A stretch of DNA of 64,000 nucleotides from Escherichia coli (GCF_044324875.1 NZ_CP172185.1); one strand, 5' to 3'. Numbered from the stretch's first letter, positions 39,801-42,800 are shown. Numbers are program-made.

Positions 39801-42800
39801 TTGTTAAGGGGACCGAGTTTCTTAACGCTTTCTTCCGCAGTGGCCTGAACTGTACCGTGCTGGCGCTTACGCTTAACACCTGCGCTTACACTACCGAGAT
39901 TTTTGCTGGGGCAATCCGTTCAGTGCCGCATGGGGAAATTGAAGCCGCCAGAGCCTATGGCTTCTCGACCTTTAAAATGTATCGCTGCATTATTTTGCCA
40001 TCGGCGCTGCGTATTGCGTTACCGGCCTACAGCAACGAAGTGATCCTGATGCTGCATTCTACTGCGCTGGCGTTTACGGCCACGGTGCCGGATCTGCTGA
40101 AAATTGCCCGTGATATCAACGCCGCGACGTATCAACCTTTTACCGCCTTCGGCATTGCCGCGGTGCTCTATTTAATCATCTCTTATGTCCTGATCAGCCT
40201 CTTTCGCAGAGCGGAAAAACGCTGGTTGCAGCATGTGAAACCTTCTTCAACGCACTGAGAATACGATGTCCGAGAATAAATTAAACGTTATCGATTTGCA
40301 CAAACGCTACGGCGAACACGAAGTGCTGAAAGGGGTCTCACTGCAAGCGAATGCCGGAGATGTCATAAGCATCATCGGATCGTCGGGATCGGGGAAAAGT
40401 ACCTTTCTGCGCTGCATTAACTTCCTCGAAAAACCGAGTGAAGGGTCGATCGTGGTCAATGGCCAGACGATCAATCTGGTGCGCGACAAAGATGGTCAAC
40501 TCAAAGTCGCCGATAAAAATCAGCTGCGCTTACTGCGCACACGCCTGACGATGGTATTCCAGCACTTCAATCTCTGGAGCCACATGACGGTGCTGGAAAA
40601 CGTCATGGAAGCGCCGATTCAGGTGTTGGGCCTGAGCAAGCAGGAAGCGCGCGAGCGGGCGGTGAAGTATCTGGCAAAAGTTGGGATAGACGAACGTGCG
40701 CAGGGGAAATATCCGGTGCACCTGTCCGGTGGTCAGCAACAGCGTGTTTCCATCGCAAGGGCGCTGGCAATGGAACCGGAAGTTTTACTATTTGATGAAC
40801 CTACCTCGGCGCTCGATCCTGAACTGGTAGGCGAAGTGTTACGTATTATGCAGCAATTGGCAGAAGAGGGGAAAACCATGGTGGTAGTGACTCACGAAAT
40901 GGGCTTTGCTCGCCATGTTTCTACTCACGTCATTTTCCTCCATCAGGGGAAAATAGAAGAAGAGGGCGCGCCAGAACAGTTATTTGGTAACCCGCAAAGC
41001 CCTCGTCTGCAACAGTTCCTTAAAGGTTCGCTGAAATAATTTCCTCTCCGGTGGCTAACGCTGCCGGAGTATTTTCAAGGGGAATTTGCGAGTCCGCTTC
41101 CGCTGAAATGTAAAAGTTGCAGTCCGCTAAAAATAGTTCTGAATTCGCTGTCCAAAGATAAAAACTGCCTGCTGCATTGGGTGTAAATCGTGGTTATTGT
41201 CGCGTCATCTTAAATTTGAGGGGTGACGGAACGCCATGACAATATCGACAACTTCCACGCCGCATGATGCGGTATTTAAATCTTTTTTACGCCATCCAGA
41301 CACCGCGCGGGATTTTATTGATATTCATCTTCCCGCGCCGCTGCGCAAACTGTGTGATTTAACGACGCTTAAACTGGAACCAAACAGTTTTATTGATGAA
41401 GACCTGCGGCAATATTATTCCGACCTCTTGTGGTCTGTGAAAACGCAGGAGGGAGCGGGTTATATTTATGTGGTGATAGAGCACCAAAGTAAGCCAGAGG
41501 AATTAATGGCTTTTCGCATGATGCGCTATTCCATTGCGGCGATGCAAAACCATCTTGATGCGGGTTATAAAGAGCTTCCATTAGTGATCCCGATGCTGTT
41601 TTATCATGGTTGCAGAAGCCCTTATCCATATTCACTCTGCTGGCTTGATGAATTTGCCGAGCCTGCGATTGCCCGCAAAATTTATTCATCGGCTTTTCCG
41701 CTGGTGGATATTACCGTGGTGCCGGATGACGAGATTATGCAACATCGCAAAATGGCGCTGTTGGAGTTAATTCAGAAACATATTCGTCAGCGCGATCTGT
41801 TGGGATTAGTCGACCAAATTGTTTCGCTGCTAGTTACAGGGAACACTAATGACAGACAGCTAAAAGCCCTGTTTAATTATGTATTACAAACGGGAGATGC
41901 CCAGCGTTTCCGTGCATTTATTGGTGAGATAGCGGAACGCGCACCACAAGAAAAGGAGAAACTGATGACCATTGCTGACAGATTACGTGAAGAAGGCGCA
42001 ATGCAGGGCAAACACGAAGAAGCCCTGCGTATTGCTCAGGAGATGCTGGAGAGAGGTTTAGACAGAGAGTTAGTTATGATGGTGACCCGACTTTCACCAG
42101 ACGATCTTATCGCGCAAAGCCACTAATTCTGTAACACCAGGAGTTAACTGGCGGATGTTTGCAGTAAACCACATCAGCGAACAACATCCGCCAGCGCCTC
42201 TTCTAAATCGTACCAGCGAAACGCAAAACCCGCTTCTTCCAGCCGTTTAGGCAATGCTCGTTGTCCACCTAATACCAGCACTGAAGATTCGCCCATTAAC
42301 AGTCGAATGGCGGTCACAGGGACGCGCAAAATGGCCGGGCGATGCAGCGCATGACCGAGCGCATGGGCAAATTGTTCATTGCGTACCGGGTAGGGCGAAA
42401 CCATATTAAATGGTCCACGCAGCTCGTTATCCAGCAGCCAGAGAATGCCGTTGACCATATCATCAATATGAATCCAGGCCAGATACTGCCGACCGGAGCC
42501 AATCGGCCCGCCCAGACCAAGACGAAACGGCGGCAGCATTTTACCGAGAATACCGCCATCCGGTGCCAGCACTACGCCGGTACGCAGCAGGCACACTCGC
42601 GTTTTGTCACTTTGCGCCCGGCAGGCAATCTCTTCCCAGCGGGCGCAGAGTTTATGAGTAAATTCGTTATGCGGCGGTTCCTCTTCGGTAACCACCACTT
42701 CACCTAAGTCGCCATAATAGCCCGTTGCCGAGCCGGAAATGAGTACCGACGGCGGCGTGTCGCTGGCATTAATCAAATCGACCAGTTTTTGCGTGATATT

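Follow-up and report, generated by a model that had tools for sequence, protein, structure and literature searches.

The closest described relatives of the locus treated here are the rpn genes of Escherichia coli, in which a nuclease toxin and its small antitoxin share codons. That Rpn nucleases can be toxic, with small proteins started internally in the 3′ ends of their own genes to counter them, had been put forward in the preliminary description of this DNA; it is what Zhong et al. reported in 2023, RpnB included (PMC10400941), and a commentary by Koonin summarises the same RpnL/RpnS model (PMC10400984). Conservation of the rpn internal start across the family is likewise already published. 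For RpnB of strain K-12, toxicity and SOS induction by the full-length protein (RpnB-L) have been documented in vivo (PMC10400941; PMC5350276). Its C-terminal counterpart, RpnB-S, gives an initiation signal in Onc112/retapamulin ribosome profiling and, when SPA-tagged, a band on immunoblots, and a construct mutated in the iTIS and ribosome-binding site (RpnB-L*) inhibits growth more than its wild-type version (PMC10400941). The RpnB-dependent induction of the dinD-lacZ SOS reporter is blocked by RpnB-S and not by RpnA-S, and a stop codon placed at D29 of RpnB-S abolishes this block (PMC10400941). Because D272 of the K-12 protein is residue 29 when counted from M244, the published start of RpnB-S is M244, which is position 41965 of the window, that is, of the whole stretch of 64,000 nucleotides analysed here. 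Experiments by others have therefore shown that RpnB-S is translated and that it acts as a specific antitoxin, on a K-12 allele that is one S-part residue removed from that of the window.

The RpnA pair (rpnA/yhgA) shares this architecture, with an AAGGAG lying 6 nt 5′ of an ATG at codon 244. Its S part is 49% identical to that of RpnB; RpnA-S differs in being 49 residues long, in having a shorter first helix and in its lack of cross-inhibition of RpnB-L. Within the Rpn family, DNA cleavage in vitro has been demonstrated for RpnA only, and RpnA-L/RpnA-S is the sole pair for which complex formation and inhibition of cleavage in vitro are described. The plasmid pair RpnP2-L/RpnP2-S of strain ECOR13 belongs to the same family and follows the same intragenic antitoxin logic as RpnB. 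Unlike RpnB, it is plasmid-borne, its toxin is unclonable without the antitoxin, and it is the only member shown to protect against T-even phages, phage defence having been demonstrated for RpnP2 alone (PMC10400941). A more distant likeness is offered by Cas11d, produced from within cas10d of the Synechocystis type I-D CRISPR system (cited in PMC10400941), where a C-terminal product of an in-frame internal start joins the full-length protein, as RpnB-S would. Cas11d, however, is a required subunit of complementary function, whereas RpnB-S is a dominant-negative inhibitor.

The rpnB gene and its chromosomal setting

The open reading frame in the window (Table 1) is a member of the rpn family. 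Residues 8–209 of its product match the Pfam family PF04754, Transposase_31 (YhgA-like), with E = 2e-91 and 305.5 bits against a cutoff of 21, and the TIGR01784 Rpn family is matched at 188.2 bits against a cutoff of 52.1. The four residues required for RpnA activity, D11, D63, E82 and Q84 (PMC5350276), are all retained by the window protein and the K-12 paralogs. RefSeq E. coli genomes annotate rpnB at the same site, and the gene is 98% identical in DNA and 99% in protein to rpnB of K-12 MG1655 (rpnB/yfcI, b2305), which occupies the same position between hisP and yfcH. Two residues differ between the K-12 and window proteins in the part exclusive to RpnB-L (A74V and I118L). From the Shine–Dalgarno (SD) sequence to the stop codon a single base differs and produces the sole S-part difference, D29 in K-12 and E29 in the window; the SD, the spacer, the ATG and the short-repeat form of the S part are identical.

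The gene had been described as sitting alone between the his transport operon and yfcH, and hisP and yfcH indeed flank it. The companion claim, that it is the only nuclease- or transposase-like gene in the window, stands for transposase-like genes but not for nucleases, since smrB is also present. Its neighbours in the window are housekeeping genes and do not form a defence island. PADLOC 2.0 returned no match for rpnB, a result that is uninformative because its model set contains no Rpn model.

The locus varies by presence and absence. Alignment of the flanks to strain S103EC, which lacks rpnB, shows about 27 unrelated nucleotides in place of a segment of roughly 1.0 kb that includes the promoter, and roughly 12% of complete E. 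coli genomes, about 670 out of 5426, lack the gene. The ends of this segment, at 41146 and 42147, bear no terminal inverted or direct repeats. With neither terminal repeats nor duplications on its flanks, the segment is not a transposon, and the autonomous transposable element implied by the old label “putative transposase”, which should be bordered by terminal inverted repeats or a target-site duplication, was set aside. This agrees with the argument made for Rpn proteins in general (PMC10400941; PMC10400984). Strain SC418 (NZ_LR778147.1) is 100% identical to the window over rpnB. A P2-like prophage, with replication endonuclease and integrase, that transfer from SC418 would have placed in the first 26.7 kb of the window was rejected, since start codons failed to coincide and the BLAST alignment was non-collinear before about 26757; up to that point the window consists of ordinary fadL-to-flk backbone.

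Table 1. Coordinates of the features discussed, in positions of the whole window
Feature	Position	Strand	Basis
smrB, endonuclease SmrB	about 15503–16054	minus	gene content of the window
rpnB presence/absence segment, ~1.0 kb, promoter included	41146–42147		alignment to S103EC empty site
Main transcription start site (TSS) of rpnB	41160	+	inferred by transfer from strain EDL933
rpnB; product RpnB-L, 296 aa, PD-(D/E)XK-type recombination-promoting nuclease, toxin	41236–42126	+	ORF, domain, homology
Internal promoter-like element: ATGACA 41849–41854, 17-nt spacer, TTTAAT 41872–41877	41849–41877	+	read from sequence
Internal TSS of short rpnB-S mRNA	A41886	+	EDL933 internal TSS transferred via rpnB coordinates and sequence identity
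Shine–Dalgarno for RpnB-S, AAGGAG	41953–41958	+	codons K240–E241 of RpnB-L; duplex energy −8.7 kcal/mol; allele-invariant
rpnB-S CDS, 53-aa antitoxin	41965–42126	+	M244 of RpnB-L to shared stop; frame and residues equal the RpnB-L tail
12-nt (4-aa) length polymorphism, hypervariable spot within the first helix of RpnB-S	41995–42006	+	DNA and protein allele alignments

The internal ribosome-binding site and start codon

The observation from which the analysis departs is real and is confirmed to the nucleotide: the AAGGAG and the in-frame ATG at 41965–41967 lie exactly where they had been placed, and translation reproduces the predicted 53-residue product, letter for letter the C-terminal tail of RpnB. 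The two elements are separated by a 6-nt spacer, AAACTG (41959–41964), and the ATG lies 729 nt, or 243 codons, from the first position of the 296-residue frame at 41236. At codon 244, on the edge of the C-terminal tail, rpnB thus has an internal start that keeps the frame and is served by a ribosome-binding site of its own.

How much weight such a site can bear depends on what it is compared with. Taken as a bare string, AAGGAG followed after 4–9 nt by ATG occurs once in the 64-kb window, both strands counted, and dinucleotide-preserving shuffles contain it 2.6 times on average. Since at least one copy turns up in 93 of the 100 shuffles, the motif by itself is not beyond chance for a sequence of this length. 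The picture sharpens when the comparison is confined to genes. Among 415 in-frame internal ATGs in the 56 long open reading frames of the window, only that at 41965 is preceded by a six-nucleotide SD, and its predicted SD:anti-SD duplex is the strongest among 412 internal in-frame ATGs. Of the 49 annotated gene starts in the window (median −5.8 kcal/mol), 45 have a weaker duplex. In a predicted fold of 81 nt of mRNA around the start, SD and ATG are both unpaired, and shuffled versions of this segment are more structured than the segment itself (z = +1.2).

An SD sequence within a coding region may also be an accident of the protein it encodes. AAG-GAG specifies K240-E241, within a stretch, KEKLMTIA, whose amino acid sequence the paralogs conserve, and the motif could accordingly be a by-product of conserved Lys-Glu codons, one that would at most cause ribosomes to pause and would yield no protein from 41965; the chance frequency of the bare motif is compatible with such an origin. 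The alleles and paralogs speak otherwise. SD, spacer and ATG are unchanged across a seven-allele E. coli alignment and in EDL933, and in none of these eight alleles has the synonymous AAA-GAA appeared. All four K-12 paralogs (rpnA, rpnC, rpnD and rpnE) carry an SD 6 nt 5′ of an in-frame ATG at codon 241–245, with duplex energies of −7.4 to −10.8 kcal/mol, and they arrive at it through different residues: Lys-Glu as AAGGAG, Arg-Glu as AGGGAG in rpnD, which makes use of the rare AGG codon, and Gly-Gly-Glu as GGAGGGGAG in rpnC. Maintenance of a strong SD in spite of differing residues and codons suggests that selection acts on the RNA signal as well as on the protein. Together with the unpaired state of the site, and with published initiation profiling, immunoblots and mutants of the ribosome-binding site and ATG that trace small proteins to this very position, these comparisons make a mere codon by-product very improbable, and favour a functional internal start.

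Transcription, fold and variability of RpnB-S

Translation from 41965 may not depend on the full-length transcript alone. In the O157:H7 strain EDL933, an internal TSS was mapped within rpnB at genome position 3236065, 650 bp past the start codon, where, in exponentially growing LB cultures, its read score exceeded that of the main TSS; RT-qPCR agrees (PMC10469882). Internal TSSs detected by dRNA-seq in all rpn genes are cited by Zhong et al. (2023; PMC10400941). Between −45 and +10, the surroundings of the internal TSS are identical in EDL933 and the window, and those of the main TSS differ by one base. An internal promoter and start site for a short RpnS mRNA are thereby placed in the window by sequence identity with EDL933 only, and the leader of this mRNA, from A41886 to the ATG, measures 79 nt. 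Upstream of the transferred TSS, ATGACA and TTTAAT match 10 of 12 consensus positions, the latter hexamer being unchanged in seven rpnB alleles; placed in this way from the mapped TSS, they are the likely promoter hexamers of rpnB-S. A strict sigma-70 scan reported no plus-strand internal promoter in rpnB; it misses this pair, whose −10 hexamer lacks the A that the scan demands as second base.

The existence of a separate transcript bears directly on whether the small protein could instead be a fragment of the large one. Residues 210–243 lie between the Pfam domain and the helical tail, and it is conceivable that they form a protease-accessible linker, cleavage of which before residue 244 would release a C-terminal piece of RpnB-L with no internal initiation at all. 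A short mRNA with its own TSS, however, is unable to encode RpnB-L. RpnS levels exceed RpnL levels, RpnA-S having been detected where RpnA-L was undetectable, and the small protein disappears on mutation of the ribosome-binding site or start codon, as reported for chromosomal RpnA and for constructs carrying RpnB (PMC10400941). In the RpnA control mutant, RpnA-L*, the substitutions K240R, E241D and M244L alter the homologous SD codons and the start (PMC10400941). Moreover, the crystallised RpnA-S (PDB 7th0) begins at the methionine that aligns with M244 of RpnB. Given these observations, an origin by proteolysis is scarcely credible, and internal initiation is retained as the source of RpnB-S.

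The crystal structure also provides a template against which the small protein can be judged. Residues 1–48 of the 49-residue 7th0 chain align to RpnB 244–295 (phmmer, E = 1e-3, whole chain). An AlphaFold model of the 53-residue RpnB-S has helices at residues 3–29, 34–41 and 45–49, with a mean pLDDT of 81.6, and its top Foldseek match in the PDB is again 7th0, with a probability of 1.00, TM scores of 0.69/0.79 and an rmsd of 2.2 Å. RpnB-S is thus predicted to fold, as RpnA-S does, into a compact bundle of three helices, the first of them long. The matches ranked behind 7th0 include helical DNA-binding domains, but these are weak, all with E > 1. Designer pentatricopeptide (PPR) proteins, the top PDB matches by sequence, were rejected as an artefact of summing over repeats, because their per-repeat i-Evalue is about 50 or more and the fold search contains no PPR.

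Variation among alleles is distributed very unevenly along the gene. In seven alleles, amino acid-variable columns make up 7 of 243 (2.9%) in the part exclusive to RpnB-L and 23 of 57 (40%) in the part shared with RpnB-S (Fisher p = 3e-13). One difference is a 12-nt length polymorphism, found in many genomes, that inserts four residues in the first helix: GAMQ, the short form, is carried by the window and by K-12, and GRNDGLIL by other strains. This indel sits 11 residues past M244, in keeping with the published length variation of Rpn S parts, which proceeds in units of four amino acids and starts 8–20 residues past the methionine (PMC10400941). Multi-copy repeats were not seen in the RpnB alleles compared, in which the insertion is a single extra block of four residues. 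Among E. coli, RpnB-S occurs as a 53-residue form with either D29 or E29 and as a 57-residue form with an RNDG-type insertion. A further form, of the O157/O145 type, has a replaced helix 2–3.

A gene within a gene at rpnB

The signals and the extent to which they are conserved, together with the match in fold and the pattern of variability, all directly observed, form the sequence basis for reading this locus as the gene-within-a-gene toxin–antitoxin pair RpnB-L/RpnB-S that Zhong et al. (2023) described, an identification to which we assign a probability of roughly 0.93. The long mRNA from about 41160 would be translated into RpnB-L, a PD-(D/E)XK DNA endonuclease whose activity would damage DNA and inhibit growth. 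A second, shorter mRNA would begin within rpnB at about 41886, and ribosomes would load on the AAGGAG of this short mRNA, and probably on that of the long one too, to start at the internal ATG in the same frame. RpnB-S, made mainly from the short mRNA, would thus be the last 53 residues of RpnB-L released as a free three-helix protein. Its long first helix would bind the matching C-terminal domain of RpnB-L and keep the nuclease inactive, while the hypervariable first helix, with its four-residue insertions, would set the specificity of pairing. The complex between RpnB-L and RpnB-S, the block of cleavage in vitro and a specificity governed by repeat number would hold for RpnB by analogy with RpnA or RpnC. 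Toxin and antitoxin would be expected to co-evolve because they share codons.

That RpnB-S is made does not in itself settle what it is for. The published antitoxin assays of RpnB-S overexpress it from PrhaB and PBAD plasmids (PMC10400941), and inhibition could be a phenomenon of such expression while the main role of the protein lies elsewhere, as an HTH-like regulator or a housekeeping partner. Zhong et al. themselves noted that HHpred points to a relation with HTH motifs, and that housekeeping roles are possible (PMC10400941), and the low-scoring DNA-binding folds that follow 7th0 in the structural search point in the same direction. Against this, inhibition is specific to the cognate paralog; in vitro, RpnA-S is reported to form a complex with RpnA-L and to block its cleavage of DNA (PMC10400941); and RpnP2-L* could be cloned only if repressed or with inactivating mutations (PMC10400941). 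The strong diversification restricted to the shared S part also fits a specificity interface. A primary role other than antitoxin at native expression is therefore disfavoured and seems improbable, and the interpretation originally attached to this site, that the small protein counters RpnB, is supported.

As an identification, the start of RpnB-S at 41965 is a correct rediscovery. It is not a new finding, because the same start was published in 2023. What the present analysis adds for this allele is the exact position of each element (internal promoter region, TSS, SD, start codon and hypervariable spot), along with its departure from the tested K-12 allele by D29E. The RefSeq records examined, that of K-12 MG1655 included, carry no separate annotation for rpnB-S; a reading of sequence alone therefore recovered a real, validated and unannotated protein, and the case can serve as a useful positive control for scans of this kind.

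The allelic diversity of the S part invites a wider hypothesis. The forms of RpnB-S may represent classes of L–S pairs that do not cross-react and are held apart by phage pressure, with chromosomal RpnB-LS, far from being a silent relic, actively defending against particular phages. This proposal is tentative, and we consider it on the whole rather unlikely. The kind of system is not new; if true, however, such a reading of allele classes and defence would extend the published work on RpnC and RpnP2 to RpnB.

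The rpnB segment and its surroundings

Together with its own promoter, rpnB behaves as a clean presence/absence segment; in a set of 5426 complete E. coli genomes, approximately 670 are without it. Where it is missing, as in strain S103EC, about 27 unrelated nucleotides separate the hisP terminator region from the end of yfcH. Flanking repeats were sought at the segment, and none were found. Downstream, 22 nt past the rpnB stop codon, a perfect inverted repeat begins; yfcH, which is convergent, overlaps it with its 3′ end. This element is also kept in strains without rpnB. Since it lacks a plus-strand T-run, it is only a possible rpnB terminator.

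Inside the gene, a promoter-like site on the minus strand overlaps the AT-rich stretch immediately 3′ of the TTTAAT hexamer of the plus-strand internal promoter-like element. The minus-strand site hints that divergent or antisense transcription may occur within rpnB.

Features of the rpnB region and of the wider window
Feature	Position	Strand	Details
naRNA4 match, first of tandem pair	33634-33704	plus	Rfam RF02564; 83 bits
naRNA4 match, second of tandem pair	33725-33795	plus	Rfam RF02564; 81 bits
rpnB with own promoter	41146-42147		clean presence/absence segment
Promoter-like site	41876-41903	minus	TGGGCA-16-CATAAT
RpnB-S helix 1-2 hairpin, PPR-like	41989-42096		RpnB residues 252-287
Divergent RpnB-S patch, O157/O145 lineage	1066-1224 of L003 (O145:H28 rpnB locus); also in L015 (O157:H7 rpnB locus)		equivalent to window 42050-42085
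Inverted repeat	42148-42194		perfect, 12 bp; CTGGCGGATGTT / AACATCCGCCAG; 23-nt loop

Comparison with strain SC418

The rpnB region of SC418 is 100% identical to that of the window. At about 26757, upstream of pdxB, the two diverge: SC418 carries a P2-like prophage adjoining pdxB, whereas the window has the fabB-yfcJ-flk backbone. The window therefore represents a different strain, and the SC418 annotation is not transferable to the left of that point. The two also differ in the copy arrangement of naRNA4, a REP-derived, nucleoid-associated RNA, as marked by a BLAST break at 33680/33754; by annotation transferred from SC418, the tandem pair in the window lies in or adjoins the dedD-cvpA intergenic region.

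Likeness and allelic variation of RpnB-S

The helix 1-2 hairpin of the antitoxin RpnB-S resembles GKLDEALKLFEEMVEKGIKPDVV, the consensus pentatricopeptide repeat (PPR) of designer PPR proteins. When PDB sequences were searched, the match reached a summed E of ~1e-13, but with i-Evalues of at least 50 for each single repeat. Because a fold search with RpnB-S returned no PPR among its matches, the likeness is probably a composition effect of a helical hairpin.

Codon 272 of rpnB (window position 42054), which encodes residue 29 of RpnB-S, is GAG (Glu) in the window and GAT (Asp) in K-12. This D29E substitution, the sole difference from K-12 within the RpnB-S part, falls at the residue where published work placed a stop codon. 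In strain 2016C-3878, the C-terminal end differs, as does the DNA downstream. In the O157/O145 lineage (O145:H28 and O157:H7), helices 2-3 of RpnB-S are swapped for a divergent patch, EKGFDHEVILTL, within near-identical surrounding DNA. This patch looks like a small recombination tract rather than scattered point mutation.
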